From positions 5,568,001-5,632,000 of the forward strand of contig OZ245365.1 of NCBI GenBank assembly GCA_965226495.1: a stretch of DNA of 64,000 bases, given 5' to 3'. Under the pieces are notes generated by a model. The model had not been told where the DNA came from, did not search any database, and saw nothing but the letters and a program-made list of their open reading frames with translations. This document shows positions 108 to 23,890 of the stretch, one piece after another. Every line of letters begins with the position of its first letter. Positions within the stretch are counted from its first letter, which is position 1. Position numbers and translations under genes: made by a program. The DNA comes from Candidatus Marinacidobacterales bacterium. Lineage in GTDB: Bacteria; Acidobacteriota; Vicinamibacteria; Marinacidobacterales; DATDRI01.

Positions 108-1289
108 TTAGGTCGCTGCCTCCAACGCCTGCGTCAAATCGGCAATGAGATCTTCCGTGTCTTCGATCCCCACCGAGTAACGGACGAGCCCTTCCGGAAT
201 CCCCAATGACTCGCGCTCTTGGGGCGTGAGCTCTACGTGACTCGTCGTCGCGGGAGGGCCGGCAATGGTCTCCACCGAGCCCAAGTGCGCGGCCAAGTGT
301 GCGTATCGGAGCCGCGGTAAGAAACCTCGAACGCTTTCGAACCCTCCCTTCAATTTGAAGCTGACAATGCCACCGAAGCCCGTCATTTGTCGACGCGCAA
401 TCTCATGGTGAGGATCCGACTCGAGCCCAGGATAATAAACCTGATCGATGGTGGGATGTTTTTCGAGGAAGCGTGCGATTTCGAGAGCGCTGGCGTTTTG
501 TTGGCGGATACGGAGGTGCAGCGTCTTCATTCCTCGGAGCAGTAAATAGGCGGCCATCGGATGAAGCGAGGGGCCGGTGATCTCTCGATAGTGTGATATC
601 TGCTGGACGAGATCGTGCCTTCCACAGACCACACCTCCCAACGCGTCGGCGTGTCCACCCAGGAATTTCGTCGCACTGTGAACGACCAGATCTGCGCCGA
701 GCTCGAGAGGTCTCTGGTTCACTGGTGTTGCAAAGGTATTGTCGACAACAACGATGGCACCTGTTTCGTGAGCCGCTTTCGAAAGATGGGCGATATCGAC
801 CAACTTCAGAGTCGGGTTGGTCGGGGTCTCGAGGTATACGATCCGGCATCCCCGAGCGATGGCGGCTTCGATCGCTTCGGGATCGGTGGTTTCACAAAGC
901 GTCGCTTCCATCTTGACGCGCGGAAAAAACTCGAGGAATAGCTTACTCGTCCCACCATAGGTGTCTTTGGTGGAGACGACGCGGTCTCCCGAGGAAAGCA
1001 GGCCAAAAAACGTACTGGTGACGGCCGCCATGCCGGTGGAAAAGCTGGTCGCCGCCTCGGCGCCTTCGAGCGCGCGCACTTTTTCTTCGAAGACCTGGAC
1101 GGTGGGATTCGACTGGCGGCCGTAGATGTGTCCCGACTCCTCGGACTTGGCAACGCGCAGCCATTCGTCCAGATCCGGATAGCCGAACGAAACGCTGTGG
1201 ACAACGGGCACCTGGGTCGCGTGCTGCCACCCCTCGCCGCCTTCGCCCGCCCAAACGGCTTGCGTCCCTATCTTGGGTTTTTTTTCCAT
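108..1289 (-). CDS. Cys/Met metabolism PLP-dependent enzyme (cystathionine gamma-synthase / methionine gamma-lyase family)
   Basis: Motifs YGRQSNPT, FSTGMAA, ETPTNP, DNTFATP and the PLP lysine in HSATKFLGGH; C-terminal RYSVGIED. ATG at 1289 follows a purine-rich RBS (ORF track starts at 1298). Confidence 0.9.
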   Translation of the reverse strand: MEKKPKIGTQAVWAGEGGEGWQHATQVPVVHSVSFGYPDLDEWLRVAKSEESGHIYGRQSNPTVQVFEEKVRALEGAEAATSFSTGMAAVTSTFFGLLSSGDRVVSTKDTYGGTSKLFLEFFPRVKMEATLCETTDPEAIEAAIARGCRIVYLETPTNPTLKLVDIAHLSKAAHETGAIVVVDNTFATPVNQRPLELGADLVVHSATKFLGGHADALGGVVCGRHDLVQQISHYREITGPSLHPMAAYLLLRGMKTLHLRIRQQNASALEIARFLEKHPTIDQVYYPGLESDPHHEIARRQMTGFGGIVSFKLKGGFESVRGFLPRLRYAHLAAHLGSVETIAGPPATTSHVELTPQERESLGIPEGLVRYSVGIEDTEDLIADLTQALEAAT

Positions 1290-1323
1290 GCATGCCACCT
1301 ATTCCTCTCCTAATTCCTCCGAG

Positions 1324-3021
1324 CTATCGGAAGGGGAACGTACCGACGACTCCTAACCCCTCGACCACGAGAGCCAGTTCACCCGCCCGCAGTGGTCCCA
1401 ACGTCTCCTCGCCGGCGCCTGGCCAATAGATACGCGCACTCGGAACCTCGGTCTTGGATCCCAGACCAATGTGTACCACGAGCTCGTTCTGGGATGCATA
1501 GCTCGAGCCGGCGCGGACCTCGGTCGTCATAGGCTCGTCTCCTCCAATGTCCAAGACCAGGCGAGCACCGACCGCGTTGCGGTTGGCGGCCCGTCCGATT
1601 AGCAAAAGACGAAGTGCGTTCCCTGACGATGTCTCGTTTGCAAGCAAGTCCGGCCGGTCACCCGAGTTGGCAAAGAGCAGGTCTAGATCGCCGTCTCCTT
1701 CGAGGTCAGCCACCGCTAGACCGCGGCTGACCTTCACCAGCTCGAAACCCGGGCCGACCTCCAGGACCTCGTTGAATCGACCACTACCTCGATTCCAAAA
1801 GATTTGATTCCGCTGCGGGTAGGACGAACCCTCGGTCAATTCTGAGGTGTTATCCAGAACATGCCCGTTGGCCGCGACGATGTCGAGAAATCCATCATTA
1901 TTCAAATCGGCGAAGGCGGTTCCGAACCCGAGAGAGCGGAGCGAAGGACGACCAACCCCTGCATAAGAAGACACATCGGTAAAGAAACCACCCTGGTCGT
2001 TTCGATACAGCGTGTTGAGCTCACCTTGGAAGTTCGTGACGACGAGATCGAGATCACCGTCCCGATCGTAATCACCTACATCAACACCCATTCCAGCGAG
2101 GGCTCGGCCATCCCCATCGTAGGCCACACCGGATTGGAGAGCCTCTTCCGTGAAGTATAACCCTCCGTGGTTTCGAAAGAGAAAATTGGGAACGGTGTCG
2201 TTGGCCACGTACAGATCGCTGAGACCGTCCCCGTCGTAGTCGAACGCCAGGACGCCGAGACCTTTCCCCGACGGTAGTGCGATGCCCGCTTGCTGACTCA
2301 CATCTTCGAACGTGCCGTCGCCTCGATTACGGAATAGAGCATCGGGCAACCCACGAAAAGCGTCGGGCAGGCAATAGGAGCGAAGAACCTTGCCTCCTTT
2401 ACGCTGTGAACAATCGGGATTGTTGTCGAAGCCGAAGTCCAGGTAGTTCGACACATAGAGGTCCAAGTTGCCGTCGCCATCGAGATCGGACCAACTCGCA
2501 CCGACACTCCAAAGGTGGCTGACGACACCGGCCCACTCCGCCACCTCGGCAAAACTCCCGTCGCCGTTGTTGCGGAAGAGTCGGTTGGGACCAAACTCCG
2601 TGACGTAGAGATCTACGTCACCGTCATTGTCGTAGTCACTCGCGGCGGCACCCATTCCATAGCCTGGGAAAGTCAATCCGGAAAAAGCTGTGACGTTCGA
2701 AAAACGTCCCTGGCCATCGTTCCGGTAAAGGGCACCGGTCACAGACTCTTCCCGTTGGAAGCCGGGAAGCATACCTCCGTTTACCAAGTAGAGGTCCGGG
2801 TCGAGATCTCCGTCGTAGTCGAAGAAGACCACGCCGGCGCCCATCGTCTCGATCATGTACTTCTCCCCCGAGGCTCCGGTGACGTGGGTGAAATCGATTC
2901 CCGCACGTGCAGTAATGTCGACGAATTGGAAGGTCGGGGGTTCCTGTGCGGGAGACAAAGACGGTAGGGCGATTACAATCGCGATGACCGGGACGTGAGA
3001 AAGACGCTCCACGCGCGGCAT
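1324..3021 (-). CDS. CRTAC1-family secreted protein (FG-GAP/VCBS repeats plus ASPIC-UnbV C-terminus)
   Basis: Signal-peptide-like N-terminus, repeated DYDxDGDxDL motifs, C-terminal NRNAVGAR...GSSYASQ...HIGLG. The true start may be the GTG at 3012. Confidence 0.9.
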   Translation of the reverse strand: MPRVERLSHVPVIAIVIALPSLSPAQEPPTFQFVDITARAGIDFTHVTGASGEKYMIETMGAGVVFFDYDGDLDPDLYLVNGGMLPGFQREESVTGALYRNDGQGRFSNVTAFSGLTFPGYGMGAAASDYDNDGDVDLYVTEFGPNRLFRNNGDGSFAEVAEWAGVVSHLWSVGASWSDLDGDGNLDLYVSNYLDFGFDNNPDCSQRKGGKVLRSYCLPDAFRGLPDALFRNRGDGTFEDVSQQAGIALPSGKGLGVLAFDYDGDGLSDLYVANDTVPNFLFRNHGGLYFTEEALQSGVAYDGDGRALAGMGVDVGDYDRDGDLDLVVTNFQGELNTLYRNDQGGFFTDVSSYAGVGRPSLRSLGFGTAFADLNNDGFLDIVAANGHVLDNTSELTEGSSYPQRNQIFWNRGSGRFNEVLEVGPGFELVKVSRGLAVADLEGDGDLDLLFANSGDRPDLLANETSSGNALRLLLIGRAANRNAVGARLVLDIGGDEPMTTEVRAGSSYASQNELVVHIGLGSKTEVPSARIYWPGAGEETLGPLRAGELALVVEGLGVVGTFPFR

Positions 3022-3105
3022 TATAGCGGTAGTCGGCCGGAGTGGCCGGATCCTGACACCCGTCCTATACTACCGCCACCATTCACCGGGAACCCGGGTT
3101 TCATC

Positions 3106-3891
3106 ATGAGCCACAAGAAACCACCTTCTGGAACGCAGGCAGTATTGCGTGCAATCGCGTTACTCAAAGCCTTCACCGGAGACAAGCCGGAGATGGACCT
3201 TCCAGATCTCGCCGATCGGGTGGGCCTTACCAGGACGACGACACACCGCTTGTTGTCCGCTCTGGAAAGTGAGGACCTCGTTGCCAAGGATCCGTTGTCC
3301 CATGGTTACCGCTTGGGGCCGGCCGCGATCGCTCTAGGGTCTCGAGCGTTGCGCACGAACGACTTGCGTAAGATTGCCCGGCCGTACCTTGAATCGCTAG
3401 CCGCTCGCACTCGGGAAACGGCAACACTCGAAGTATTGGTAGATGGCTGGATGTTGATCCTCGATGAAGTGCTGGGGGCGCATTTGGTCGGTACGACTCC
3501 TTCGGTCGGAACGTCCTGGGCCATCCATGCGACCTCCACCGGTAAGGTGTTGCTCGCACACCTGCCGGAAACCGATCGAAAGAAGCTCTTGAAGAAACCT
3601 CTTACTCGCTATACCCCGCGCACCATTACCGACTCGCGAGAGCTGCAAAAAGAATTCGATCAGGCGCGCCAGCGGGGTTACGCGATTGCTGCGGAAGAGC
3701 TCGAGGAGGGTTACGTGGCGGTGGGCGCGACCATCACCGGTCCACTCGGGAACCCAGTCGGAAGTCTGAGCGTCGGAGGTCCCAGTGTTCGTCTCAAGCG
3801 GAACCAGCTTTCCGATCTGGGAAAGCTCGTCACCGCAGCTGCCCGCCAGGTCTCGATACGTCTAGGCTACGAGACCACCGACTTCAAGTGA
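3106..3891 (+). CDS. IclR-family transcriptional regulator
   Basis: HTH (QAVLRAIALL...GLTRTTTHRLL), HATSTGK and RGYA...EELEEG effector-domain motifs; ATG at 3106 is in frame with ORF 2995..3891. Confidence 0.93.
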   Translation: MSHKKPPSGTQAVLRAIALLKAFTGDKPEMDLPDLADRVGLTRTTTHRLLSALESEDLVAKDPLSHGYRLGPAAIALGSRALRTNDLRKIARPYLESLAARTRETATLEVLVDGWMLILDEVLGAHLVGTTPSVGTSWAIHATSTGKVLLAHLPETDRKKLLKKPLTRYTPRTITDSRELQKEFDQARQRGYAIAAEELEEGYVAVGATITGPLGNPVGSLSVGGPSVRLKRNQLSDLGKLVTAAARQVSIRLGYETTDFK

Positions 3892-4195
3892 GACCGCAAC
3901 TCGAAACGAGGAGCAGACAGGTCCTCGCGGCCCTCGATGACCGCGACATCTTCATTGTTGGCGGCGACTCCGAACAACCGAGAGGGGAATTCCCCTCCGC
4001 CAATGCTCTTCTCGCCGCGATCCGGAACTCCAAGCATCAATTCGATGAGATCGAGATGGCTGCCTATCCGGAAGGCCATCCCTTCCTCAGTGACGCAGAG
4101 TTACTCGAAGCTCTTCACGAGAAACAACCCTTCGCCTCCTATATGAGCAATGGCGGAAGAAACTGCTGGCACGGCTCGAAACCATGTTGGCTTGA
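3888..4195 (+). pseudogene. metF: Methylenetetrahydrofolate reductase relic with two internal deletions
   Basis: The middle segment DIFIVGGD...EIEMAAYPEGHPF...ALHEKQPFASY resembles the MetF GD and GYPEGH motifs. A second frame from 4145 gives a MetF-like C-terminus EQWRKKLLARLETMLA* (TGA 4193-4195). The GTG start overlaps the IclR stop. Confidence 0.65.
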
Positions 4196-4243
4196 GGGTA
4201 GGATAGACCGGCCAGGAATGTAAACGGACGAGGAGAACTCGGC

Positions 4244-5476
4244 ATGGAGCTCTATGACTTGGGAGATCGCCCGGCGCTGGGAGAAGTTCCATCGAAGATG
4301 CACGCATTCACCGTACGGCAAGACCGTTTCGGAGAACCGCGCGATGCCTGGAAGCGAGAGGTCATCCCGACGCCCACGATCGGTGATCAAGAGGTTCTTG
4401 TCTACGTCATGGCGACAGGGATCAACTACAACAACGTCTGGGCCGCTCTTGGCAAACCCCTGGACGTGATCGCCGAGCGACAGAAGAAAGGCGAGCCGGA
4501 AGATTTTCACGCCGGCGGGAGCGACTGTTCGGGGATCGTCTGGAAAGTGGGTGAGAAGGTCACGAACGTCAAGCCGGGAGACGAAGTCGTCGTCCATAGC
4601 GGTTGGTGGGAACCGGACGATCCGTGGGTCCTATCGGGCAAGGATCCCATGCTCGCGGAGAGCACGCGGATCTGGGGGTATCAGACCAACTACGGTAGCT
4701 ATTGCCAATTCGCACGGGCGCAATCGCATCAATGCCAACCCAAGCCCAAACATCTGACCTGGGATGCAGCCGGGTGCTACATGCTTTGCGCCTCCACCGC
4801 TTATCGAATGCTGATGGGTTGGTCCCCCAACGTCGTGGAGTCAGGAGACGTGGTACTGGTTTGGGGCGCAGCGGGTGGACTAGGAAGCATTGCCTTACAA
4901 ATCGTCAAAGCCGCGGGAGGGCGGGCCGTCGCGGTCGTCTCCGACGATGCCAAGAAAGAGTTTTGCCTCGAGCACGGAGCGGTAGGGGTCATCAATCGCA
5001 AGAACTTCGACCACTGGGGAGCCATGCCGAACACGGCCAGCCCTGAGTACGGAGCGTGGGCGAAGGGTGCGCGGTCCTTCGGCAAAGCCTTATGGGAGGC
5101 CCTCGGCGAGAGGACGAATCCACGAATCGTTTTCGAGCATCCGGGTGAGGCGACGCTTCCGACTTCGATCTTCGTCGCCGCCACCGGCGGCATGGTCGTT
5201 ATATGCGCCGGGACCACCGGATACACCGCGACCATGGACCTTCGTTATCACTGGATGCGTCAAAAGCGATTTCAAGGAAGCCACTTGTCCAATGACGAAC
5301 AGGCGGCGGCCATCAATCAGCTCGTCATCGATGGCAAAGTTGACCCCTGCCTTTCGAAGACTTTGTCTTTCGACGAGATCGGTGAGGCTCATCAATTGAT
5401 GCATGAGAACCGTCATCCGTACGGAAACATGGCCTGTCTGGTGAACGCGACGGAGCCCGGGCAAGGCGCATCGTAG
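4244..5476 (+). CDS. ccrA: Crotonyl-CoA carboxylase/reductase (enoyl-CoA carboxylase/reductase family)
   Basis: [49 protein letters not shown] and [11 protein letters not shown]; AGGAG RBS upstream. Confidence 0.92.
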
Positions 5477-5495
5477 ATCCCAACCTTGTGAAGAT

Positions 5496-6011
5496 TTGAA
5501 GCTCGATAAAGCTCTCTTCGCACTCGTGCTAGCCCTGTGCGTCTTGGTCGGCGCACTGATGCTCGTTCCCGACCGGTCGGACTACCACGGTATCACCCAC
5601 CCGGACTTCCCGAGCTTGTTGCAAGGCGGCCCCGGCGCGGAGCGGCACGCGCGCGTCATGGGGCTCGGATGGGCCTTCGGTACTCTTCAACTCGTATTCT
5701 TCGCCTGCCTCATCGCCTTCGGAGCTAAAAAGCAGCATGGCTTACGCGGTCTCGGGAAGCCGCTTCTCTTCGGCCTAGCCTTGAATACGGCCGTTTGGAC
5801 ACTCTGTGTTCTTACATACCGTGTTTATTTGACGGAGCCGACTCACATGCTCCTGCTGGGACTTCCGCTATCGACCGCGATCATGGCCTACGGAATGTGG
5901 CTCGCCCCGACCATCTACACTTTTCTCTTCGTGTTCGGCTTCAAGCGTTGGTACCTCTCGGACCAAGATCTCGCAGCTTACGATCGTCTTATGGAAAGCA
6001 AACAGCAATGA
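5496..6011 (+). CDS. Hypothetical 4-TM membrane protein, probable partner of the downstream SSS transporter
   Basis: Four hydrophobic segments; its stop overlaps the SSS start (ATGA). Confidence 0.7.
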   Translation: MKLDKALFALVLALCVLVGALMLVPDRSDYHGITHPDFPSLLQGGPGAERHARVMGLGWAFGTLQLVFFACLIAFGAKKQHGLRGLGKPLLFGLALNTAVWTLCVLTYRVYLTEPTHMLLLGLPLSTAIMAYGMWLAPTIYTFLFVFGFKRWYLSDQDLAAYDRLMESKQQ

Positions 6012-7501
6012 TGGAGTCACTGCGAAACCCGATCGTCCTCGGGAGCGTCGCCCTCTACATGGCTGTGTGCGTCGGCATGGGCATCTGGGCACTCCAACGA
6101 ACGAAGTCGACGCGCGACTTCTTCATGGCCGGTCGCAACCTCGGCATGCTCGTTACCGGGGTGGCTCTTTTCTCCAGCATGATGAGTGGATTCGGTTTCG
6201 TGGGAGGCCCTGGCCTCGTGTACCTCATGGGGATGAGCTCGGTTTGGATGATCGCAACGGTGCCCGCCGGCTGGGCAGTCACCGATTTTCTGGTCGCCAA
6301 ACGTCTACGAGTATTTGCGGGCGTCTTCGACACCATCTCCCTCCCCGACGCGGTGGCGGCCCGATACGGCAGCGAGACAAGCCGCCTTCTTACTGCGGTT
6401 GCTCTCCTCTTGGGTGTCATGGGCTACCTGGCCACACAGATACTCGCCATGGCGATCGTGTTGCAAACGATCCTCCAAAACTCGCTCGGCGAGATCGGAC
6501 TGGTGACCTGCGCGGCGATCGCCTGTACGGTCCTCGTTTTCTACAGTGTCACTGGTGGGATCATCGCATCCGTCTACACCGATATCGTGCAGGGCACGGT
6601 GATGGTCGTGGCGGGTGTGCTCATTTTTTTCACTGCCATCTCTGTATTCGAAGGTGGCGGGAACGCGGCGACGACGATGATCATGAACGATGATCCAGAG
6701 GCGATCGGTCCCTGGGGAACGCTGGGCATGATCGGCTGTCTCTCTTGGTTCTTCATGTTCACCGTGGGCAATGCCGGACAACCTCACATCGTGACCAAAG
6801 GCATGATGATCCGGCGGCTCCAAGACTATCAATACATTCCGCTCATTTCCGTTTTCGGATACACCCTGACCGCACTACTTTGGGTCAGCATCGGACTCGT
6901 GATGCGAGCACTGGTCCTCCAGGGGGCTCACCCCGAGCTCGCTACGGCCGACGCCGCCGCACCGGAGTTTCTCCAACACTACGCCCATCCGATCCTTGCT
7001 GGTTTGGTTTTCGCGGCGCTGTTTGCCGCCATCATGTCGACGGCGGACGTCTTCCTCAATATCGGGGCCGCCGCCGCCGTCCACGACATCCCGCGGGCGA
7101 TCCTCCGCCGTCCCCTCGCGAACGAGCTCTTCTGGGCTCGCGCGGGCACGATTGTCATCGCGGTCGTCGCTCTACTCTTCGCGATGTACTCCTACTATGA
7201 GAACGCTCGTTTTGTCGCGTTGCTGGGCGCTTTCGGATGGGGTACTTTCGGAGCGGCGCTGGTGCCGGTGGTCGCCATCGGGTTCAATTGGAAACGGGCT
7301 ACACCTTTGGCGGCTAACGTCGCCATCGTATCGAGTCTGCTCGTGAACTTTGGTATCGAAGTCTTCGACGTCAGCATCCCTCATAACATTCACGGCGGCA
7401 CGATTTCGTTGCTGGTTTCCTTATTCCTGTTTTTCACAATCTCTTTTGCTTCGACCCCGCCGAAATTGAGTGCCGACGTCGAAGCTGCGATGGACATCTG
7501 A
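6008..7501 (+). CDS. Sodium:solute symporter family transporter (PutP/PanF-like)
   Basis: DFFMAGRNLG, SGFGFVGGPG, GGIIASVYTDIVQG, GQPH and AAIMSTAD; about 13 TM segments. Confidence 0.92.
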   Translation: MMESLRNPIVLGSVALYMAVCVGMGIWALQRTKSTRDFFMAGRNLGMLVTGVALFSSMMSGFGFVGGPGLVYLMGMSSVWMIATVPAGWAVTDFLVAKRLRVFAGVFDTISLPDAVAARYGSETSRLLTAVALLLGVMGYLATQILAMAIVLQTILQNSLGEIGLVTCAAIACTVLVFYSVTGGIIASVYTDIVQGTVMVVAGVLIFFTAISVFEGGGNAATTMIMNDDPEAIGPWGTLGMIGCLSWFFMFTVGNAGQPHIVTKGMMIRRLQDYQYIPLISVFGYTLTALLWVSIGLVMRALVLQGAHPELATADAAAPEFLQHYAHPILAGLVFAALFAAIMSTADVFLNIGAAAAVHDIPRAILRRPLANELFWARAGTIVIAVVALLFAMYSYYENARFVALLGAFGWGTFGAALVPVVAIGFNWKRATPLAANVAIVSSLLVNFGIEVFDVSIPHNIHGGTISLLVSLFLFFTISFASTPPKLSADVEAAMDI

Positions 7502-8776
7502 TGCCGACGAAACTCCTCAACTTCCTTTTGTTGATTCTCCTCGCGGTGCCGTCCTTCCCACAGGGGTTGCCTAGCGCAAAGCCCGAGGATGTCGGCATGT
7601 CGACGGCGCGACTGGAGCGCATCCGCCCGGTCATGCAGGCCTATGTCGATGAGGGAAAGGTGCCCGGCATGATCACCGCCGTGGCACGGCGGGGGAAGCT
7701 GGTCCATGTCGATCAGCTGGGAATGATGGACCTCGAGCCAGGGAAGAAGATGAGATCCGACACCATCTTCCGCATCTACTCCATGACCAAGCCGGTTACC
7801 GCCGTGGCGATGATGATCCTCTATGAGGAGGGGCGGCATCGCTTGAACGAACCGGTCTCGAAGTACCTCCCCGAATTGCAGAACTTGACGGTCTAGCTGG
7901 GGGGGGCTGGGCAAGAATCTGCGCACGGAGCCGGCGAGGCCGATGACGATCAAGCACCTCCTCCTTCACACCTCAGGTTTGATCTATGGAGCCGATGAGC
8001 CCGGAGTCCCCCAACTCTACCGGGACGCCGAGATCTGGGAAGCGGTCAGCCTTGAGGACTTCGTCGACAAGCTTGCGGGGCTTCCGCTTCTCGCCCAACC
8101 GGGAACGGAGTGGAATTATGGCGTATCGACGGACGTTCTCGGTCGATTGGTAGAAGTCCTTTCCGGAGAACGTTTCGAAGAATTCCTGGAAGAGCGCATT
8201 TTTCTGCCCCTCGGGATGGTGGACACGGCCTTCTACGTTCCGGACGAAAAGCTCGACCGCTTCGCAGCCAACTACCAAGCCACACCAGAGGGTGGCTTGA
8301 AGCTCATCGACTCGCCCAAAAACAGCGAGTTCCGAAATCCGAATCCAGTGCCCTACGGCGGTCAAGGCCTGGTCTGCACCGTCGGCGACTTCGTACGTTT
8401 CGCCCAGATGCTCGCCAACGGTGGAGAGCTCGACGGGGTTCGGATCCTCGGACGCAAGACCGTAGACTTCATGATGCTCGACCATTTGGGACCCGAGCTG
8501 GGGCCCGCGCCGCTCGGCGAGGCCGCGGGTTGGTACGGGATGAGCCCCGAAGGCTTGGGCTTCGGACTTGGCGGCTCCGTCGTGCGCAACGTCGCTCAGA
8601 ACTCCTTGATCGGCTCGACCGGCGACTTTTCCTGGGGCGGGGTAGCGAGTACCTACTTCTGGATCGATCGGAGCGAAGCGCTCATCGCCGTGCAGTTCAC
8701 CCAACTCATGCCCTCCGACAAGTATCCGATCCGTGCCGAGATGAAAATCCTCACCAATCAAGCCATCATCGACTGA
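7501..8776 (+). CDS. Beta-lactamase-fold serine hydrolase with signal peptide, split by frameshift(s) near 7894-7912
   Basis: SxxK (YSMTK) lies in 7501..7896; LLLHTSGL, WNYGVSTDVLG and FSWGG lie in 7943..8776. The junction TAGCT-G8 can be read as VYAGGAGKNLRTEPARPMT if indels are corrected. Confidence 0.82.
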
Positions 8777-8794
8777 ACGCAAAAAGCGCAGAAT

Positions 8795-14626: not shown

Positions 14627-14682
14627 TTGCTTTTCGATGAGTACTCTTTCCCAGTTTGTGTGTCAACTTGCAGGCTAAGTGA

Positions 14683-15953: not shown

Positions 15954-16027
15954 CAGACCTCCTCGGTCCCGCAAAGCCTCTGCACGGTTGAACTTGTCGT
16001 CCAGCCCCCCGCCGCGAGGCCTAACGG

Positions 16028-16067
16028 TTTGACCATAATATGGTAAAATCCATCACGATATGGTCAA
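16028..16067. promoter_or_regulatory. Candidate operator in the oxidase/Rieske divergent promoter
   Basis: Palindrome TTTGACCATA-A-TATGGTAAAA (16028-16048) and a 10/13 matching copy 20 bp downstream that overlaps the Rieske start codon. Confidence 0.55.
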
Positions 16068-17202
16068 GACCCGTGCTCCGGTTGTGGGCTCACTCGGCGC
16101 CAAGGGGACGCGCCGGCCATTCGAGCAAGCCTCTCCGCTTCCAGGCGATTTCTTCCATTCTTCAGAGGTCCTTTCCGCAGAGCTCGACCGAATCTTCGCA
16201 AGAACGTGGATCGTCGTCGGCCGCGAGGAAGACATTTCCGAGCCCGGGAGCTATTTCACTCGTGAGATCGGTAAGGAGTCCATCGTATTGCTCCGTGGTA
16301 CCGGCGGTGAACCCAGAGCGTTCTTCAACGTCTGCCGCCACCGAGGTGCCAAGCTCTTAGAGAGCTGTGACGGAGCCAAGCTCAAGAAGATCCAATGCCC
16401 TTATCATGCCTGGACCTACGATCTCGACGGGCGACTCGCCGCCGCTCCGCTCATGGAGTCGACGCCCGGCTTCTCGAGGGAGGATTATCCACTAGTTCCT
16501 GTAAGGGTCGAAACATGGGAAGGTTTCCTTTTCGTGAACTTGGATGACGATGTTGAGCCTCTCGAGCCGCAACTCGCAGGCTTCCCCAACGTCTCGCGCT
16601 TCCAGCTTCCCAACCTGCGCCGGGGCGGGCGCGTCGCCTACGATGTGGCCGCCAACTGGAAGCTCATCGGCGAGAACTACAACGAGTGCTACCACTGCGC
16701 TCTCGTTCATCCTCAACTTCATCGCATCAGCCACTATCAAAGTGGCGGGAGAATAGAATCGGGGATGAATTTCACCGGAGGTCCCATGACCCTCAACGAG
16801 GGGTTTACGACCATGACCATGAGCGGGAGGAGCACACGCCCTCCCATTCCTGATCTCGTTCCAGAGGATCATCGGACCGTTCACTATTTCCACCTCTACC
16901 CAGGCTTTCTGCTCAGCCTCCATCCTGACTACGTCTTGACGCACACCGTTTGGCCGGTCGACACATCCCACAGCCGCGTGATTTGTGAATGGCTCTTTAC
17001 GCAAGATGCCATGGCCCGGGAAGACTTCGACCCCAGCGATGCTATTGAGTTTTGGGACGTCACCAACCGGCAAGACTGGGAACTTTGCGAGATCGCTCAG
17101 AAAGGAGTCCGATCTCGAGGCTACCGGCCCGGCCGCTATCAAGCGGGCGAGAGCTCGGTCCACGCCTTCGACAACTGGTGCCTCGATCAACTGGAGAGCT
17201 AA
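16060..17202 (+). CDS. Rieske non-heme iron oxygenase alpha subunit (choline monooxygenase/GbcA/Stc2-like group)
   Basis: NVCRHRG...CPYHAW Rieske ligands; NWK...ENYNECYHC..VHP and QDW mononuclear iron ligands. Confidence 0.9.
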   Translation: MVKTRAPVVGSLGAKGTRRPFEQASPLPGDFFHSSEVLSAELDRIFARTWIVVGREEDISEPGSYFTREIGKESIVLLRGTGGEPRAFFNVCRHRGAKLLESCDGAKLKKIQCPYHAWTYDLDGRLAAAPLMESTPGFSREDYPLVPVRVETWEGFLFVNLDDDVEPLEPQLAGFPNVSRFQLPNLRRGGRVAYDVAANWKLIGENYNECYHCALVHPQLHRISHYQSGGRIESGMNFTGGPMTLNEGFTTMTMSGRSTRPPIPDLVPEDHRTVHYFHLYPGFLLSLHPDYVLTHTVWPVDTSHSRVICEWLFTQDAMAREDFDPSDAIEFWDVTNRQDWELCEIAQKGVRSRGYRPGRYQAGESSVHAFDNWCLDQLES

Positions 17203-17358
17203 CTAACCGACCGCTCTCGGTGCTGGCATCGAAGCTCCTACCTGTGGTACTCAACTCCGCCGGGGGCGATCGTTCAGAGGTCAGCCACGATCGTGCCCAC
17301 GCGCTTAAATCGTAATCATCCAAACCCACTGTGCTGCTAGCCGAGGAGATCCAAACCC

Positions 17359-19035
17359 ATGCCCAAGTCTGCCATCCCTCCCGACATAGAGATCGCGCAA
17401 TCGGCCAAGATCCGACCCATCGTGGACGTAGCCTCTGAGCTAGGACTGGCGCCCGAAGACATCGAACCTTACGGCCACTACAAGGCCAAGGTGCGTCTCG
17501 AGGTGTTGGATCGAGCCAAGAAGAAAGCTCGTTTGGTCTTGGTGACCGCTACCAGCCCCACTACAGCGGGGGAGGGGAAAACCACCATGACCGTCGGGCT
17601 GGCTCAAGCGCTCAGGCGGCTGGGTCACAAGGCGGCGCCGTGCATCCGTGAGCCGAGTCTCGGTCCGCTCTTTGGTATGAAGGGCGGGGCGGCAGGAGGC
17701 GGTTACTCTCAAGTCATCCCGATGGAAGACATCAATCTGCATTTCACCGGTGACTTTCATGCCATTACTTCTGCGCACATGCTCCTTTCCGCCACCATCG
17801 ACAACCATCTTCACCAAGGGAACACACTGGGACTGGACCCCCGCCGGATCCCATGGACTCGATGCTTGGACATGAACGACCGAGCCCTGAGACAGGTCGT
17901 GGTTGGGTTGGGCGGCCCGACCGGAGGTGTTCCACGGCAAGAAGAGTATGTCATCACCGCCGCGAGCGAGATCATGGCGATCCTTTGTTTGTCGACGGAC
18001 CTTGCCGATCTAGAAAAGAGGCTCGGGAACATCCTCGTGGGCTACAACCAGGAGCGAAAGCCGGTCCGGGCGCGCGAGCTCGAGGTCCAAGGCGCGATGA
18101 CGATCCTTCTCAAAGATGCCTTGAAGCCCAACCTGGTACAAACGCTCGAAGGAGGACCCGCCTTTATTCACGGCGGACCCTTCGGGAATATCGCGCATGG
18201 ATGTAACTCTATCCTGGGAACTCGAATGGCCATGGCTTTGTCCGACATCGTCGTCACCGAGGCCGGTTTCGGAAGTGATCTGGGAGCCGAGAAGTTCTGC
18301 GATATCAAGTGTCGCGCGGCGGGTCTCACTCCCGACGCTGCGGTCATCGTGACTACGGTAAGAGCACTCAGGTACAACGGTGGTCAACCGAAGGGTGAGA
18401 CCGGGGAGAATTCAAAAGCGCTCGAGGCTGGCTTCGCCAACTTGGATAAGCATATCGAAAACGTCGCTACGTTCGGCTTGCCTGCTATCGTCGCGGTGAA
18501 TCGCTTCCCCACGGACACCGACGCCGAAATTGAACAAGTGATTACCCACTGCGAGAAGGTCGGCGCCGCCGCGGCAGATGCCGATATCTTCTCGAGAGGG
18601 GGAGAAGGGGGAGAAGCCTTGGCCGAGGCGGTGGTCGAGGTGCTGGAAACTAAGAAGTCCGAATTCCGGTTCGCCTACGAAGTCGACGAGCCGATCAAAG
18701 ACAAGGTCCACGCGGTGGCCACCAAGATGTACGGTGCCGACGGTGTCGACTACACCGCCAAAGCGGAGAAAGCGATCGCCGCTTTAGAGCGAAACAGTCT
18801 TTCCAATCTTCCCGTCTGTATCGCCAAGACGCAGTATTCACTCAGCGACGAGCCGACCAGGCTCGGGCGCCCACGAGGTTTCCGGATCCAAGTGCAAGAC
18901 GTGATCGCCTCCGCCGGAGCAGGATTCCTAGTCGTGTTGGCAGGGTCGGTGATGAGAATGCCGGGGCTTCCTCGCGTTCCGGCCGCTACTCAGATGCACA
19001 TCGGCCCCGATGGAAAAACGGTGGGACTCTCGTAA
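17359..19035 (+). CDS. fhs: Formate--tetrahydrofolate ligase
   Basis: DIEIAQ, GEGKTT, REPSLGP, KGGAAGGGYSQ, INLHFTGD, HGGPFGNIAHGCNS, TEAGFG, AKTQYS, MPGLP; GAGGAG RBS. Confidence 0.97.
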   Translation: MPKSAIPPDIEIAQSAKIRPIVDVASELGLAPEDIEPYGHYKAKVRLEVLDRAKKKARLVLVTATSPTTAGEGKTTMTVGLAQALRRLGHKAAPCIREPSLGPLFGMKGGAAGGGYSQVIPMEDINLHFTGDFHAITSAHMLLSATIDNHLHQGNTLGLDPRRIPWTRCLDMNDRALRQVVVGLGGPTGGVPRQEEYVITAASEIMAILCLSTDLADLEKRLGNILVGYNQERKPVRARELEVQGAMTILLKDALKPNLVQTLEGGPAFIHGGPFGNIAHGCNSILGTRMAMALSDIVVTEAGFGSDLGAEKFCDIKCRAAGLTPDAAVIVTTVRALRYNGGQPKGETGENSKALEAGFANLDKHIENVATFGLPAIVAVNRFPTDTDAEIEQVITHCEKVGAAAADADIFSRGGEGGEALAEAVVEVLETKKSEFRFAYEVDEPIKDKVHAVATKMYGADGVDYTAKAEKAIAALERNSLSNLPVCIAKTQYSLSDEPTRLGRPRGFRIQVQDVIASAGAGFLVVLAGSVMRMPGLPRVPAATQMHIGPDGKTVGLS

Positions 19036-19061
19036 GAATGAAAGTAGCCTGGGGTCCCGTA

Positions 19062-20270
19062 TCACACACTAGGTCTCTTCAGAACGCTCCGCTTTCTTTC
19101 CGGATCGAAAAAGGGAAGCGGTGCGACTTTGGCAGCCACACGCTTGCGCGCGTACTCAATGGTCATCTCGAGTTCGACGCGCGTGCCCGGCTTAGCGTGC
19201 TCGGACCTGACGCTCGCAAGCGCGATGAACTTCTTCAGAAGCTTTGACCAACAGCTACTGGTTGCCCGACCGACCTGCCGATCGTCGACGTAAACGGGAA
19301 CCGGTTCCCGCGAAGCAACGTTCGACAGTTGCGGGAGCAAACCCACTTCCTCGTGGAGCTTCTCTAGCTCCTCCCACTTGATTTCAAGCCCCACGAAGGC
19401 GTATGTCGAGCCCTTCTCCTTCTCTTTCTCGAGCGCCTCGCGACCGATGAAGTAGGGCTTGTTGAAATTCACCGCCCATCCCAGTCCTATTTCGTAAGGA
19501 GAAGACTTTTGCGACTCGATGAGAGCCTTCTCGGCGCTAATGAAGTCCACCTCGATGAGCGGATACCCGGCTTCGATGCGAGCCAGATCCAACGCAAGCA
19601 TGCCGGCCGGAGTGATACCCCGACCCTTCCCGGCTTCCATCAAGAGATCCCATACCTGCTCGGCGTGATCCCGCGAAACCCAAACCTCGTACCCCAAATC
19701 GCCCGTGAAGCCGGTTCGGCTTACCCAGGTTGGAATGTTTCCCAAATTGGTGCGCGTGATCCAGAAGTACTTTAGATCGGACAAATCGGAGCTCGAGAGC
19801 TCCATTAAGATCTCTCGCGAGCGCGGCCCTTGAAGAGCGAGCGCGCCCACTTGCTCGGAGAGATCTTCTATCTCCACTTCCATTCCTTCGGCGTTCAGCT
19901 CGAACCACCGAAGCGTGGGGTCGGCAGCGGTGGCTCGAAAGGTGGTCTCGCCGAGACGCTGAAACGTGCCGTCTTGGATGACTTTGCCTTCTCGATCACA
20001 CCAAGGCACATAAAGGACCTGCCCTACTTTAGCCTTCGCCGCGTTCCTCGTGACGACACGGTTGACAAGCTTTGCCGCATCCCGGCCACGGATTTCGTAT
20101 TTGAAGAGCGGAGAGACATCGATGAGGCCCGCGCCGTTCCGCATTGCGTGGTACTCCGGGTCATGAAAATCGTCGTAAGAGCTGGGAGCGAAGTACCCGG
20201 ACCAATGACGCCAGTTCATACTGGTGCAGAGCACGGAAGTCCGAGAATGAAAGGGCGTTCCTACGGCCAT
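19062..20270 (-). CDS. GcvT-like aminomethyltransferase family protein
   Basis: TPFH, DVSPLFKY, LQGPRS, SRTGFTGDLGYE, ARIEAG, PFFDP; no gcvH/gcvP nearby. Confidence 0.9.
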   Translation of the reverse strand: MAVGTPFHSRTSVLCTSMNWRHWSGYFAPSSYDDFHDPEYHAMRNGAGLIDVSPLFKYEIRGRDAAKLVNRVVTRNAAKAKVGQVLYVPWCDREGKVIQDGTFQRLGETTFRATAADPTLRWFELNAEGMEVEIEDLSEQVGALALQGPRSREILMELSSSDLSDLKYFWITRTNLGNIPTWVSRTGFTGDLGYEVWVSRDHAEQVWDLLMEAGKGRGITPAGMLALDLARIEAGYPLIEVDFISAEKALIESQKSSPYEIGLGWAVNFNKPYFIGREALEKEKEKGSTYAFVGLEIKWEELEKLHEEVGLLPQLSNVASREPVPVYVDDRQVGRATSSCWSKLLKKFIALASVRSEHAKPGTRVELEMTIEYARKRVAAKVAPLPFFDPERKRSVLKRPSV

Positions 20271-20393
20271 GATGCCCTGGCTTGGAAGGTGGTCATAGAA
20301 AACTCCTCGTGGTCGGCAGTCTAGGTAGCCGCTTTTTTCGCGTCAACTCTACTACCTTATTACTATTGCCCATGCTATTCTCTTGGACCGCGT

Positions 20394-20426
20394 ACCACAA
20401 TGCAACCAGCGGTTCCATAATGTGGT
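20394..20426. promoter_or_regulatory. Candidate operator in the GcvT-like/flavoprotein divergent promoter
   Basis: TCCATAATGTGGT (20414-20426) matches ACCATAATATGGT at 16032-16044; a weaker copy ACCACAATG lies 20 bp upstream. Confidence 0.45.
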
Positions 20427-20441
20427 TCGGATCGACCGGGT

Positions 20442-22028
20442 ATGGCAAAAAGCTACGACGTCATCGTCATCGGTGCGGGACACAACGGCTTGGTGCACGC
20501 GGCCTATCTCGCAAAAGCCGGCAAGAAAGTTCTGGTGTTGGAACGTCGGCATCTCGTCGGCGGCGCCACCGTCACCGAGGAGATCTACCCCGGTTTCAAG
20601 TACTCGGTTTGCTCCTACGTCGTGAGCCTTCTCCGACCGGAAATCATCGAAGACCTGGACCTTGCTAGCCACGGACTTCAGCTTCTTTCTCTCGACGGCA
20701 CCTTCACTCCTCTTCCTAACGGCGACTACCTCGCCCGTTGGGGTGATCATGATAAGACGCGCCAAGAGCTGATCCGTCACTCCCGAAAGGACGCCGAGGC
20801 TTACGACCAGTTCGGAACGTTGATGTACCACCTTTCGCGGGCAGTTCGGTCCATGCTTTCCACGGTGCCTCCCGATCCCACCTCTTTCAAACCGTCCGAT
20901 CTCGCCGGACTTGCACGAATCGGACATCAATTTCACGGCCTGGGAGAGGAGCGTCTCTACGATCTCACCAAGCTCATGACGATGAGCTCCGTCGATTTCC
21001 TCGACGAATGGTTCGAGTACGAGCCGTTGAAGGCGACTATGGCTGCGAGCGGTATCATCGGTACGTTTCTCGGTCCCCGCTCGCCGGGAACGGCCTACGT
21101 CCTCCTCCATCACTACATGGGGGAGATCGACGGTGTCTTTCGTTCTTGGGGATTTCCGCGGGGGGGCATGGGTTCGGTCGCCGAGTCCATCGCTTCGTCG
21201 GCGAGAAGCCTCGGCGCTGAAGTTCGCACCGAAGCTCCCATCGCTCGTCTCCTCGTCAAGAATGGCAAGGCAGAAGGCGTGGTGCTCGAAAGCGGTGAGG
21301 AGATCCGTGCGCGAGCCGTCGCCTCGAGCCTGGATCCCAAGCGGACCTTCTTGAAACTGATCGAACCGAGCGATCTTGACTCCGATTTCGCGGAATCCGT
21401 ACGTCGCTTCAAGATTCGTGGCTCTTCTGGAAAAGTGAACCTGGCGCTCGACGAGCTTCCCAACTTCACCTGTTTGCCTGGCGACGGCCCGCATCTCCGC
21501 GGATCGATCTCCATCAGTCCGAGCATCGACTACTTAGAGGAAGCCTACGACGACGCCAAGTACGGAGATTTTTCGAGAAAACCGTACATGGACATCCTCA
21601 TTCCCTCTGTAATCGATCCATCGATGGCCCCACCGGGAAAGCATGTGATGTCGATCTTCGTGCAATACGCCCCCTACCATTTGAAGGAAGGTACTTGGGA
21701 GGAAAAACGCGAAGCGTTCGGTGACGCCGTCGTGAATACGCTCAGTGAGTACGCGCCTAATCTAAAGAACTCCATTCTTCATCGACAAGTGCTCACGCCT
21801 TGGGATCTCGAGCAGAAGATCGGGCTCACCGAAGGGAATATCTTTCATGGCGAGTTGACTATGGATCAACTCTTTTTCCTCCGACCCGTCCCCGGTTGGG
21901 CGAAGTATCGCACCCCTATTCGCAACTTCTATCTCTGCGGATCGGGAGCTCACCCAGGTGGGGGCGTGATGGGCTCACCGGGTAAGCTCGCCGCCCAAGA
22001 ATTGCTAAAGGATTGGGAAAGCCTGTAG
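20442..22028 (+). CDS. Phytoene dehydrogenase-like (PYROXD2-type) FAD oxidoreductase, paralog A
   Basis: GAGHNGL, GGA.VTEE, SLLRP, GGMG, GNIFHG, CGSGAHPGGGV. Confidence 0.9.
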   Translation: MAKSYDVIVIGAGHNGLVHAAYLAKAGKKVLVLERRHLVGGATVTEEIYPGFKYSVCSYVVSLLRPEIIEDLDLASHGLQLLSLDGTFTPLPNGDYLARWGDHDKTRQELIRHSRKDAEAYDQFGTLMYHLSRAVRSMLSTVPPDPTSFKPSDLAGLARIGHQFHGLGEERLYDLTKLMTMSSVDFLDEWFEYEPLKATMAASGIIGTFLGPRSPGTAYVLLHHYMGEIDGVFRSWGFPRGGMGSVAESIASSARSLGAEVRTEAPIARLLVKNGKAEGVVLESGEEIRARAVASSLDPKRTFLKLIEPSDLDSDFAESVRRFKIRGSSGKVNLALDELPNFTCLPGDGPHLRGSISISPSIDYLEEAYDDAKYGDFSRKPYMDILIPSVIDPSMAPPGKHVMSIFVQYAPYHLKEGTWEEKREAFGDAVVNTLSEYAPNLKNSILHRQVLTPWDLEQKIGLTEGNIFHGELTMDQLFFLRPVPGWAKYRTPIRNFYLCGSGAHPGGGVMGSPGKLAAQELLKDWESL

Positions 22029-22281
22029 CAACTATGTGTGTTGATCGCCCCAGGGTCCCAGTGAACTACCGTCCCCGCCGGAGGGCAACGTGGCCAAGAC
22101 GGCCCGGCAGGGCCGCCGGCCGGGAGGAATTGACTCATGAATTACACGGTCAAGGGAACCGGCCGGGTTTTTCGCCCGAGCGAAGCCTTGAAACGATGTC
22201 GTAGTCGCGAAGTCGACGGAGCATCAAGGCTTGGGGGTGGGGCCCCACTCGCATTAATCAAAGATTGGGAAGGCCTGTAGC
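22008..22281. mobile_element. About 230-bp structured insert flanked by 22-bp direct repeats (MITE/REP-like)
   Basis: AAGGATTGGGAAAGCCTGTAGC (22008-22029) versus AAAGATTGGGAAGGCCTGTAGC (22260-22281), 20/22 identical; internal stems AAGCCTTGA/TCAAGGCTT and TTGAC/GTCAA. Confidence 0.55.
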
Positions 22282-22282
22282 C

Positions 22283-23890
22283 GTGAGCACGAACCACGAT
22301 GTCATTATTATCGGCGCAGGACACAACGGCCTCGTCACCGCGGCCTACCTAGCCAAGGCCGGCAAGAAGGTCCTGGTCCTCGAGCGACGAGACATTGTCG
22401 GCGGTTCGGTGGTCACCGAGAAGTTCGCGCCCGGCTTCAAGGCCTCCCCGACGACGGACCTGTGTGGTCTTCTTCTTCCCCAGGTTGTCCGTGAGTTGGA
22501 TCTAAAGAGTCACGGTCTCGAGCTTCTTCCCGTGAACCCCGCAGTTTTTCTACCTCTTGAAGACGGTAGTCATCTCACGATCTGGCGCGAACGAGAGAAG
22601 ACGCTCCGCGAGATCGAGCGTCACTCGTCTGCCGATGCGAAGGCGTATCCGCGTTTCGCCAAGCTCGTTCAGAGCCTCACGTCGTTCATGCGACCCCAGC
22701 TTTCGCGCCCCGCGCCGAAACCCGGCAGCGGGAGCCCAGGTGACCTCTTGGAGTTATTGAGGCTCGGATGGGGTATGCGAAGTCTGGGTGCCAACGACAT
22801 GCATCAACTTCTCCGCGTCCTGCCGATGTCGGTAGCGGACTGGGTCAATGAGTGGTTCGAAGGAGATGGCTTGAAGGCAGCGTTGGTAGCACGCGGCATC
22901 GGCGGCGTGTTTCTGAGCCCCCGAGACGCGGGCAGCGCCGCCGTCTTCCTCTACCACCATCTGGGACGACCGGATTGGCCTCTCGTGTCTTGGGGATTTC
23001 CTCGTGGCGGCATGGGCGGCGTGACCCAGGCGCTTGCAAGGGCTGCTAAAGCGGCGGGCGTCGAGGTTCGCACCGGCACCTCTGTCGCCCACGTCATCTT
23101 GAAGAACGGTCGAGCCACCGGCGTCGCCCTCGATAACGGAGATGAGCTCACGTCTAGACTCGTCGTTTCCAATGCCGATCCGCACACCACGTTCCTGAAA
23201 CTCGTCGAGCCCCATGAGCTCGAAACCGAGTTCATCGGTCGTGTCAAGGCCATTCGTTACCGAGGCGTCGTCGCCAAGATCAACATGGCCGTTTCCGAGC
23301 TCCCTAATTTCTCTTGTCTTCCGGGCAAGGAGCCTGCCGCTCATCATCAAGGCCTGATCCAGATCGGAGCCGAGATCGATTACTTGGAGCGCGCTTTCGA
23401 CGACGCGAAGTACGGTCGCTTCTCGTCCAAGCCCTTCCTTCAGGCAACGATACCGTCATTGACTGATCCCAATCTAGCCCCTTCCGGACAGCACGTCGTG
23501 TCGGTTCTCATGCAGTACGCTCCCTACCATCTCCGTGAAGGGACCTGGGACAATCGAAGAGAAGAGCTAGGTGACGTGGTGGTCGACACACTGAACGCGT
23601 ACGCTCCGAACTTGAGGCAATCGATTCTCCATCGTGAGGTACTGACGCCGCTGGACTTCGAAACAAGGTTTGGATTGACAGAAGGTAATCTCCATCAAGG
23701 AGATCTCGCTCTCGACCAATTTCTTTTCATGAGGCCGGTGCCCGGCTGGGCACGCTACCGGACTCCCGTTCCCAACCTCTACCTCTGCGGTGCTGCAACT
23801 CACCCCGGCGGTGGCGTCAGCGGTGCCCCCGGCTACAATGCTAGCCGTCAGATCTTGAAAGACTGGGGAACGATCGAAGCGAACCGCTGA
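22283..23890 (+). CDS. Phytoene dehydrogenase-like (PYROXD2-type) FAD oxidoreductase, paralog B
   Basis: GAGHNGL, GGMG, GNLHQG, CGAATHPGGGVSG; GTG start at 22283 is in frame with ORF 22265..23890. Confidence 0.9.
   Translation: MSTNHDVIIIGAGHNGLVTAAYLAKAGKKVLVLERRDIVGGSVVTEKFAPGFKASPTTDLCGLLLPQVVRELDLKSHGLELLPVNPAVFLPLEDGSHLTIWREREKTLREIERHSSADAKAYPRFAKLVQSLTSFMRPQLSRPAPKPGSGSPGDLLELLRLGWGMRSLGANDMHQLLRVLPMSVADWVNEWFEGDGLKAALVARGIGGVFLSPRDAGSAAVFLYHHLGRPDWPLVSWGFPRGGMGGVTQALARAAKAAGVEVRTGTSVAHVILKNGRATGVALDNGDELTSRLVVSNADPHTTFLKLVEPHELETEFIGRVKAIRYRGVVAKINMAVSELPNFSCLPGKEPAAHHQGLIQIGAEIDYLERAFDDAKYGRFSSKPFLQATIPSLTDPNLAPSGQHVVSVLMQYAPYHLREGTWDNRREELGDVVVDTLNAYAPNLRQSILHREVLTPLDFETRFGLTEGNLHQGDLALDQFLFMRPVPGWARYRTPVPNLYLCGAATHPGGGVSGAPGYNASRQILKDWGTIEANR

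Follow-up and report, generated by a model that had tools for sequence, protein, structure and literature searches.

An acidobacterial locus with a possible variant of the DMSP-demethylation gene set beside a conserved orphan module

The first 24 kb of a 64-kb stretch of DNA from a Candidatus Marinacidobacterales bacterium (the window) carry a gene cluster that, judged from sequence, has about an even chance of joining two osmolyte-demethylation units that feed the folate one-carbon (C1) pool, of having been under purifying selection until recently and of now being in the course of erosion. Unit A (about 2995–14626) is specific to the genus and contains DmdA1, a DmdA-family methyltransferase dependent on tetrahydrofolate (THF), together with homologues of further proteins of dimethylsulfoniopropionate (DMSP) demethylation. 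Unit B (14683–23890) is ancestral in the order and contains a Rieske oxygenase, a stand-alone GcvT-family protein and two PYROXD2-like flavoproteins. We describe the locus as a variant form of the DMSP-demethylation genes already known, with a conserved orphan module. The long open reading frames (ORFs) of positions 1–24000 were scanned against Pfam and NCBIfam, and all functions in the mechanism proposed below are assigned from homology and gene neighborhood. G000 denotes the window's own genome, G002 and G001 two genomes of the same genus, and L-numbers the loci around DmdA1 relatives.

DmdA1 is intact (8795–9934, + strand) and has the GcvT fold, consisting of a folate-binding domain (PF01571, 129.2 bits) and a C-terminal barrel (PF08669, 62.9 bits). 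Its best solved relative is the DmdA of P. ubique (3tfh, 255.9 bits), with GcvT as runner-up at 147.4 bits. A gammaproteobacterial copy that is followed by enoyl-CoA hydratase (ECH) and AMP-ligase genes is 56% identical to DmdA1, and the gene order around that copy matches the SAR92 cluster, for which the published account gives the order dmdA-acuH-dmdB-dmdC and verification of dmdA by complementation (PMC10746254). DmdA1 is 36–40% identical to the Roseobacter DmdA proteins encoded beside dmdEF and falls within a 97%-supported clade with these and the ECH/ligase-linked type. Context was counted in 80 loci around DmdA1 relatives, 34 of them in the narrower clade of DmdA1 itself and 46 outside it. 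An intact gene of the methylenetetrahydrofolate reductase (MTHFR) family lies directly upstream in 7 of the 34 clade loci and in none of the 46 others, which fits 5-methyl-THF as the product.

The proposal that unit A performs DMSP-type S-demethylation, already made in the initial annotation of this DNA, is plausible and becomes firmer through the homologues of DmdE and DmdF and through the match of the neighboring ligase to a solved DmdB. According to a 2026 EMBO J report, the DUF2182 protein of Ruegeria lacuscaerulensis is DmdE, the DUF1326 protein is DmdF, a peroxidase, and both are essential for DMSP demethylation; the same source describes a Roseobacter operon dmdE-dmdF-dinB-dmdA-acuI, studied with DmdR (PMC12992908). 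In the window, the genes for a DUF1326 protein (13159–13782, − strand; PF07040, 153 bits) and a DUF2182/PpoB2 membrane protein (13811–14626, − strand; PF09948, 225.1 bits) adjoin each other at 13159–14626, 3.2 kb from DmdA1. The DUF1326 protein has matches in 43 of 81 Rhodobacteraceae genomes, and the order DUF2182, DUF1326, gap, DmdA recurs in seven of the ten Rhodobacteraceae regions examined. Identity to the Rhodobacteraceae copies is 41–47% for DUF1326 (copies beside dmdA) and 38–49% for DUF2182. Among the 80 loci, linkage of DmdA to DUF1326/DUF2182 is confined to two metagenome-assembled genomes (MAGs) of Acidobacteriota: L009, an independent MAG, has the linkage together with a Ccr 84% identical to that of the window, and L001 has the DmdA-DUF1326 pair and, at a contig end, part of DUF2182. 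The window and these two loci contradict the view put forward in PMC12992908 that, outside Alphaproteobacteria, dmdEF-like genes do not lie close to DMSP genes.

The ligase gene (9942–11558, − strand) is intact and its product passes NF004837 (594.9 against a cut-off of 476) as a subfamily member and falls short of the DmdB model NF005426 (665.8 against 822). It matches the R. lacuscaerulensis DmdB structure 6IHK over its full length at 515.6 bits, but a Thermus long-chain ligase, 1ult, is a higher-scoring match at 582.6 bits.

The crotonyl-CoA carboxylase/reductase (Ccr) family enzyme of unit A (4244–5476, + strand) passes TIGR01751 with 549.6 against 378.55, and its matches in the PDB are AntE (529.8 bits) and Ccr (484.7 bits). 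Ccr is known to accept acryloyl-CoA as a substrate. A role in the ethylmalonyl-CoA pathway, one of those offered in the initial annotation, is unlikely: no ethylmalonyl-CoA mutase was found, since the two PF01642 genes of the genome encode a split methylmalonyl-CoA mutase (TIGR00641) and IcmF (no search was made for mcd, mch and mcl). Because the genome has a single ccr gene and no such mutase came to light, Ccr probably stands in for AcuI, by our analysis, reducing and carboxylating acryloyl-CoA. The only gene of the L009 genome to pass TIGR01751 is the one beside dmdEF and dmdA.

How might unit A have worked? The SSS carrier, with its small subunit, would import the substrate, a second carrier of the MFS type now being broken. 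DmdA1 would demethylate DMSP, or a closely similar sulfonium compound, with THF as the acceptor, yielding 5-methyl-THF and methylthiopropionate, from which the DmdB-like ligase would form the CoA thioester. The homologues of DmdE and DmdF may supply an accessory or peroxide-protecting function, as Roseobacters need, and Ccr would convert toxic acryloyl-CoA, or another enoyl-CoA, to methylmalonyl-CoA for the methylmalonyl-CoA mutase of the genome. A dedicated MetF-like enzyme could formerly have re-oxidized 5-methyl-THF; this enzyme is now lost, and the one full metF of the genome, presumed housekeeping, lies outside the window at 4138375–4139202. An IclR protein would act as the regulator.

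Distribution separates the two units. We counted matches in 40 relatives, from genus to order level. Ccr has a match in two, both of the same genus, DUF1326 in four and DmdA-like proteins at E ≤ 1e-60 in six (best identity 58–59%), whereas GcvT2, the stand-alone GcvT-family protein, and Pyrox1, one of the flavoproteins, each have matches in 33 and the Rieske enzyme in 19. GcvT2 lies within 10 kb of a Pyrox gene in 27 of the 33 relatives that have it (26 of 32 when the unpublished G007 is set aside); of the 19 relatives with a Rieske gene, 13 have it no more than 3 kb from GcvT2. The contrast between 33 of 40 for GcvT2 and Pyrox1 and 2 of 40 for Ccr indicates an ancestral order-level module with a genus-level addition. 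The single integrated pathway suggested at first thus gives way to an order-wide module (GcvT2, two PYROXD2-like proteins and, in some relatives, the Rieske enzyme) joined to a genus-specific one.

Could the genes be neighbors without a shared pathway, that is, housekeeping genes of C1 and amino-acid metabolism (Fhs, GcvT paralogues, the pyridoxal phosphate (PLP) enzyme) beside unrelated acyl-CoA genes? We consider this very unlikely. It would fit the occurrence of unit B without unit A in most relatives and the varying flanks of unit B; in the four relatives annotated in detail, the GcvT2/Pyrox/Rieske set alone is conserved. It would also fit Fhs being the only copy in the genome and a scan of the locus for promoters and terminators, in which matches were at chance level. 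Yet tblastn finds a single copy of each of six genes of the locus (Ccr, DmdA1, DUF1326, Rieske, Fhs and IclR) in the whole 6.34-Mb genome, and all six lie inside 24 kb; the gene order is kept in G002, and sub-sets recur in unrelated phyla, at L009, in Rhodobacteraceae and at actinomycetotal loci.

Within unit B, the Rieske non-heme-iron oxygenase (16060–17202, + strand; PF00355 and PF00848) is nearest to the CntA/Stc2/GbcA group, as had been proposed, with the carnitine monooxygenase CntA (186 bits) and the stachydrine demethylase Stc2 (177.4 bits) as top PDB matches and a score of 223.8 against a cut-off of 670 for the GbcA model. GcvT2 (19062–20270, − strand; PF01571 and PF08669) fails the Tdm and GcvT cut-offs of NCBIfam and, among solved structures, resembles the THF domains of Tdm (C-terminal; 179.3 bits), DMGO, DMGDH and SoxA. 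The two paralogous CrtO/PYROXD2-like flavin adenine dinucleotide (FAD) oxidoreductases (20442–22028 and 22265–23890, + strand) are 52% identical to each other, match Amino_oxidase/DAO profiles, score 351.9 against 1000 with the CrtO model and have weak matches to CrtI only among solved structures. Their putative family label comes from the automatic names of the nearest Atlas clusters (PYROXD2-type, a name that carries a very high score, or phytoene desaturase family). Fhs, the formate-tetrahydrofolate ligase (17359–19035, + strand; NF010030, 858.1 against 652), is the only copy in the genome (a single tblastn match) and so may serve more than this locus.

In the mechanism we envision, the CntA/Stc2-type Rieske enzyme would attack a quaternary methylamine, the two PYROXD2-like flavoproteins and GcvT2 would take further methyl groups onto THF, and Fhs, with FolD encoded elsewhere in the genome, would complete oxidation to formate. 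The set of GcvT2 and the two PYROXD2-like proteins, often accompanied by the Rieske enzyme, is probably an oxidative N-demethylase. More tentatively, though as the most economical reading, the set may be a hitherto undescribed split N-methyl demethylase, in which CrtI-fold flavoproteins oxidize tertiary and secondary methylamines and pass the C1 unit to a free-standing GcvT protein; it would then be a two-polypeptide counterpart of dimethylglycine and sarcosine dehydrogenases. A bolder variant would have the Rieske enzyme demethylate DMSP or methylthiopropionate. Variants of human PYROXD2 are reportedly linked to dimethylamine and trimethylamine levels. Prediction of a complex between Pyrox1 and GcvT2 from two alignments of 23 rows each gave a score far below the mark, which is evidence neither way. 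Orthologues of Pyrox1 and GcvT2 appear split or truncated at G005:C34:85545-87109 and G010:C2:49342-53156.

Several observations weigh against DMSP as the substrate of DmdA1 and against a complete, working pathway. DmdA1 scores 359.7 with the NCBIfam DmdA equivalog NF009133, below its cut-off of 410; as 27 of 28 homologues scanned fail as well, among them Rhodobacterales copies and copies from SAR92-cluster MAGs, the cut-off discriminates poorly, and we rejected it as a test of DmdA identity. No assayed protein could be tied to the DmdA1 sub-clade (SH-aLRT 100; 19–35 rows). The DmdA1 clade is sister to the Roseobacter and ECH/ligase-linked types or nested, depending on the root chosen, and an approximately unbiased test, applied to a group named after inspection of the tree, was neutral (p 0.48). 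W197 and E204 of P. ubique DmdA correspond to W201 and E208 in DmdA1, while the folate-site tyrosine Y206 is replaced by phenylalanine at position 210 (the P. ubique residues are numbered W171/E178/Y180 in PMC7487153). Phenylalanine occupies this position in 32 of 94 aligned DmdA-like rows, and the dmdEF-linked Roseobacter copies themselves have tyrosine where P. ubique DmdA has tryptophan. The published HTCC2080 reference is not assignable because that genome has three copies, and we rejected it as an anchor for verified DmdA. The genome, scored as 94.8% complete, yielded no DmdC-type PF12806 domain (the best acyl-CoA dehydrogenase (ACAD) match is 27% identical) and neither an SBP56 methanethiol oxidase nor a DMSP lyase of the cupin family; the search did not extend to DddP, DddD and DddX. 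Outside the locus, the closest ECH of the genome reaches 44% identity. The genome-wide gene check suggested at the outset thus located folD elsewhere in the genome and recovered neither Ecm nor the DmdC-type domain. For unit B, the 23 scanned ORFs of the locus contain no reductase domain and hence no adjacent Rieske partner. Four genes are broken in the window: the metF-like gene, an esterase, the MFS carrier and an oxidase. Finally, 12 of the 34 clade loci have a secreted esterase, of one or other of two unrelated folds, no more than 3 kb away, as against 1 of the 46 others.

Since these esterases (10 COesterases of the cholinesterase family and 2 of the beta-lactamase fold) flank the DmdA1 clade, an ester may be the source from which the substrate is released. 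They would suit an alternative that we find doubtful, in which members of the clade are THF methyltransferases for another onium compound, of the choline, betaine or sulfonium type, released by the secreted esterase, with the remaining enzymes processing the backbone. The lack of an assayed clade member and the insecure placement of the clade among verified DmdA proteins are consistent with this alternative, and basal relatives (the second paralogue of G002 and actinobacterial copies) adjoin Rieske and PYROXD2-like genes. The DmdA1 motif RTGWSGE is closer to ordinary GcvT than to the RSG[YW]SKQGG of Roseobacters and P. ubique; however, RTGWS[GS]E also occurs in the ECH/ligase-linked gammaproteobacterial type. 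Also counting against the alternative, homologues of DmdE and DmdF, a DmdB-like ligase and an acryloyl-CoA-type enzyme adjoin DmdA1 as they do in Roseobacters, and clade members from SAR86 lie 4–8 kb from genes for ECH, ACAD and a ligase. We retain DMSP, or a close sulfonium relative, as the candidate substrate of DmdA1.

If the two units formed a demethylation locus, how much of it still functions? G002 is collinear with the window from IclR to beyond 30 kb, at 80–91% nucleotide identity (blastn), with reciprocal losses. Of the synteny expected in relatives, gene order is thus kept in G002, while four genes are broken in the window and the relatives lack other parts. The metF relic (3888–4223, + strand; 111 amino acids; MTHFR E=0.0012, 18.7 bits against a cut-off of 24) has two internal deletions, with about 225 and 316 bp missing by blastn against G002, where an intact 286-amino-acid MTHFR-family gene (44.4 bits) stands between IclR and Ccr and bears out its designation as a relic. 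In the secreted beta-lactamase-fold serine hydrolase, which is esterase-like and has a signal peptide (7501–8776, + strand), PF00144 positions 4–87 match in one frame and 94–320 in another, with a G8 run (7899–7906) at the break; the L009 hydrolase is a single open frame. The MFS carrier of the anion:cation symporter type (11837–13118, − strand) is frameshifted near 12331, with TIGR00893 positions 4–233 and 241–396 in separate ORFs. The MSOX/MTOX-like FAD oxidase (14683–15974, − strand; 190 against 257 with the MTOX model) is frameshifted near 15690, with DAO profile positions 1–39 and 37–353 in different frames, and G002 keeps an intact oxidase of 423 amino acids. G002 also keeps a second DmdA-like paralogue between Rieske and Fhs that is lost in the window. 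Conversely, DmdA1 and the MFS carrier are missing from G002, as are the N-terminal portion of the hydrolase, the C-terminal portion of the ligase and almost the whole of the two flavoprotein genes; the N terminus of its Rieske protein is scrambled. G001 retains a scrap of the PLP gene abutting Ccr, a frameshifted Ccr, the small ORF before the SSS carrier, a frameshifted SSS gene and scraps of the hydrolase and MFS genes, and its similarity to the window resumes at 26536.

In four public runs, each from a different study and one of them possibly the source sample, contigs span the three frameshift sites without indels, which places the frameshifts in the DNA and not in assembly slips. The comparison leaves out sponge metagenomes (word share 0.12–0.18) and seawater and marine-sediment runs (0.23–0.39). 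The four runs (X11, X13, X14 and X15) differ from the window in 0–2 letters over 7400–16400 and carry four organism labels; such near-identical DNA in four studies points to a widespread clone, or to a recurrent associate or contaminant.

Between G000 and G002, dN/dS is 0.07–0.22 for 10 cluster genes, with the SSS carrier at 0.079 and dS at 0.39–0.70; the set includes pieces now broken in one genome, and IclR is not part of it. Four flanking ORFs give 0.28–0.73. The values for the cluster indicate that purifying selection acted through most of the time since the two genomes diverged, and hence that the inactivations are recent. We regard as unlikely the further possibility that the locus is a dead relic in this strain, carrying no flux, whose intact genes have merely not yet decayed. 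Such a relic would agree with the identical frameshifts in the four runs, the two metF deletions, the lost DmdA-like paralogue, the independent losses of other parts in G002 and G001 and the fragmentation of peptidase genes downstream. It sits poorly with the low dN/dS values and with DmdA1, the DmdB-like ligase, the DmdE and DmdF homologues, Ccr, the SSS carrier, the Rieske enzyme, GcvT2, both flavoproteins and Fhs all being full-length against their profiles. Housekeeping metF and FolD genes are present elsewhere, and Fhs, as the sole copy, must be expressed. Recent and partial erosion of a formerly selected demethylation locus is the reading we prefer. The peptidase fragments follow the cluster at 23936–26025 and comprise an M14 peptidase (163 amino acids), PD40 repeats (156 amino acids) and an S9 peptidase (221 amino acids); since the ORFs at this site are longer in G002, these are further broken genes in the window.

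A 2026 review credits DMSP demethylation mainly to Alpha- and Gammaproteobacteria (PMC13360808), and no acidobacterial dmdA locus was found described in the partly accessible literature searched for dmdA with Acidobacteriota or Acidobacteria. If our interpretation is true, the presence of dmdA-dmdEF in Acidobacteriota would widen the range of sediment and host-associated bacteria that may make methanethiol from DMSP, with an acidobacterial version in which AcuI gives way to Ccr and DmdR to IclR. The reciprocal losses among three members of one genus would offer a dated natural experiment on how a pathway decays. The conserved GcvT/PYROXD2 module provides a way to test what an orphan family of flavoproteins does, and if the split-demethylase proposal holds, the PYROXD2 family would gain a biochemical function.

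The DmdA family around DmdA1 is itself diverse. HTCC2080 (G045) has family members at C7:24396, C22:263515 and C25:343676, which are 58, 56 and 42% identical to DmdA1 and belong to three separate sub-clades; the same trio occurs in Luminiphilus G138. A survey built on a single dmdA reference may lump different functions together. We also rejected the loci L038 and L041, from SAR92 single-amplified genomes, as anchors for verified DmdA, their context being COesterase-dmdA-ABC and not dmdA-acuH-dmdB. Members of a basal DmdA-like sub-family adjoin PYROXD2-like and Rieske genes at L020, L022, L026 and L029 (Actinomycetota MAGs) and at L081:19554-L082:699 in G002, and the substrate of this sub-family may differ from DMSP. 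Esterase genes stand about 1 kb upstream of DmdA at L002, L003, L013, L018 and L024 and about 0.3 kb upstream at L038 and L041-L044; further sites are the window (7501–8776), L001 and L009.

The gene list of the initial annotation stands in that all components it named are present where it placed them, by Pfam and NCBIfam; it needs amending in that the MFS carrier and the oxidase each occupy two frames and three genes were missing from it. These are the serine hydrolase, an FG-GAP/UnbV protein (1324–3021) and a small membrane ORF before the SSS carrier (5496–6011, + strand) that has no Pfam match. The small ORF always adjoins an SSS gene and is 85% identical in G002 and G001 and 39% identical in L012. 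The SSS carrier itself, a sodium:solute symporter (~6008–7501, + strand; PF00474, 166.7 bits), is PutP-like but below the cut-off. The IclR regulator (2995–3891, + strand) has HTH_IclR and IclR_C domains, scores 174 against 350 with the BhcR model and is 91% identical in G002; its true start is probably downstream of 2995. At the N terminus of the MSOX-like oxidase (15809–15974) is a twin-arginine-type signal, SRRSLLKAS, which is also present in G002 and is unusual for the family.

The first gene (108–1298, − strand) encodes a Cys/Met PLP enzyme of the cystathionine gamma-synthase family (PF01053, 448 bits; NF006097, 656.5 against 600). In 19 of the 80 loci a homologue stands no farther than 10 kb from the DmdA-like gene, and in L023, L025 and L027 the PLP gene lies 47–58 bp downstream of DmdA. 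It is possible that the enzyme is a methanethiol-assimilating sulfhydrylase that captures methanethiol directly into methionine.

The genome is one contig of 6.34 Mb, with a completeness score of 94.8%. On the evidence of RpoB, the host lineage is Acidobacteriota, as the earlier reading of the sequence had supposed: the taxon-labeled matches (3 of 3 among the 120 matches listed) are all Vicinamibacterales, at 75–76% identity. The nearest titled relatives of DmdA1 are marine MAGs, of Acidobacteriota, Polarisedimenticolia, Woeseiaceae, Halieaceae, SAR86 and SAR92. The GC profile is level across the window (0.56–0.62), with no island signature, and there is no tRNA within 1–32000. Coding density per 20-kb bin, used as a proxy for pseudogene load, was unremarkable in the bins of the window and uninformative. 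Farther along, the window contains an AAA_21 (AbiEii-like) ATPase gene (43520–44803) and a run of GT4 glycosyltransferase genes with a methyltransferase and a PMT_2-type protein (54595–63968), which resembles an exopolysaccharide or glycan cluster.

Parts of the locus resemble several known systems. With the betaine N-demethylation systems (GbcAB, CntAB and Stc2) it shares a Rieske enzyme nearest to CntA and Stc2, GcvT2, which is like their THF domains, and an MSOX-like oxidase, with its betaine-type proteins scoring below every NCBIfam equivalog cut-off of those systems. Whereas their THF domains are fused to dehydrogenases or oxidases, that of the window is a separate protein, and where they use DAO-fold flavoproteins, the window has the CrtI/PYROXD2 fold and no adjacent reductase gene. 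In Sphingobium SYK-6, the ligM-metF-ligH genes encode a GcvT-fold THF methyltransferase, MetF and a formate-THF ligase, which oxidize methyl-THF derived from an aryl methyl ether. The window shares the clustering of a GcvT-fold methyltransferase gene with metF and a formate-THF ligase gene, although its metF is a relic and its Fhs the sole genomic copy. As in the SAR92 cluster (PMC10746254), dmdA adjoins a CoA ligase gene, but the SAR92-type cluster carries ECH and ACAD genes, which the window locus lacks, and the ligases are 33% identical. The likeness to the Roseobacter divergon of R. lacuscaerulensis and R. pomeroyi (PMC12992908) extends to a DmdA-family gene near DUF2182 and DUF1326 genes, an acryloyl-CoA-consuming enzyme of the medium-chain dehydrogenase/reductase (MDR) superfamily and a divergent regulator nearby. 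The dinB of the Roseobacter operon was not seen in the window and, where Roseobacters have the FadR/GntR regulator DmdR and AcuI, the acidobacterial locus has IclR and Ccr, a carboxylating reductase.

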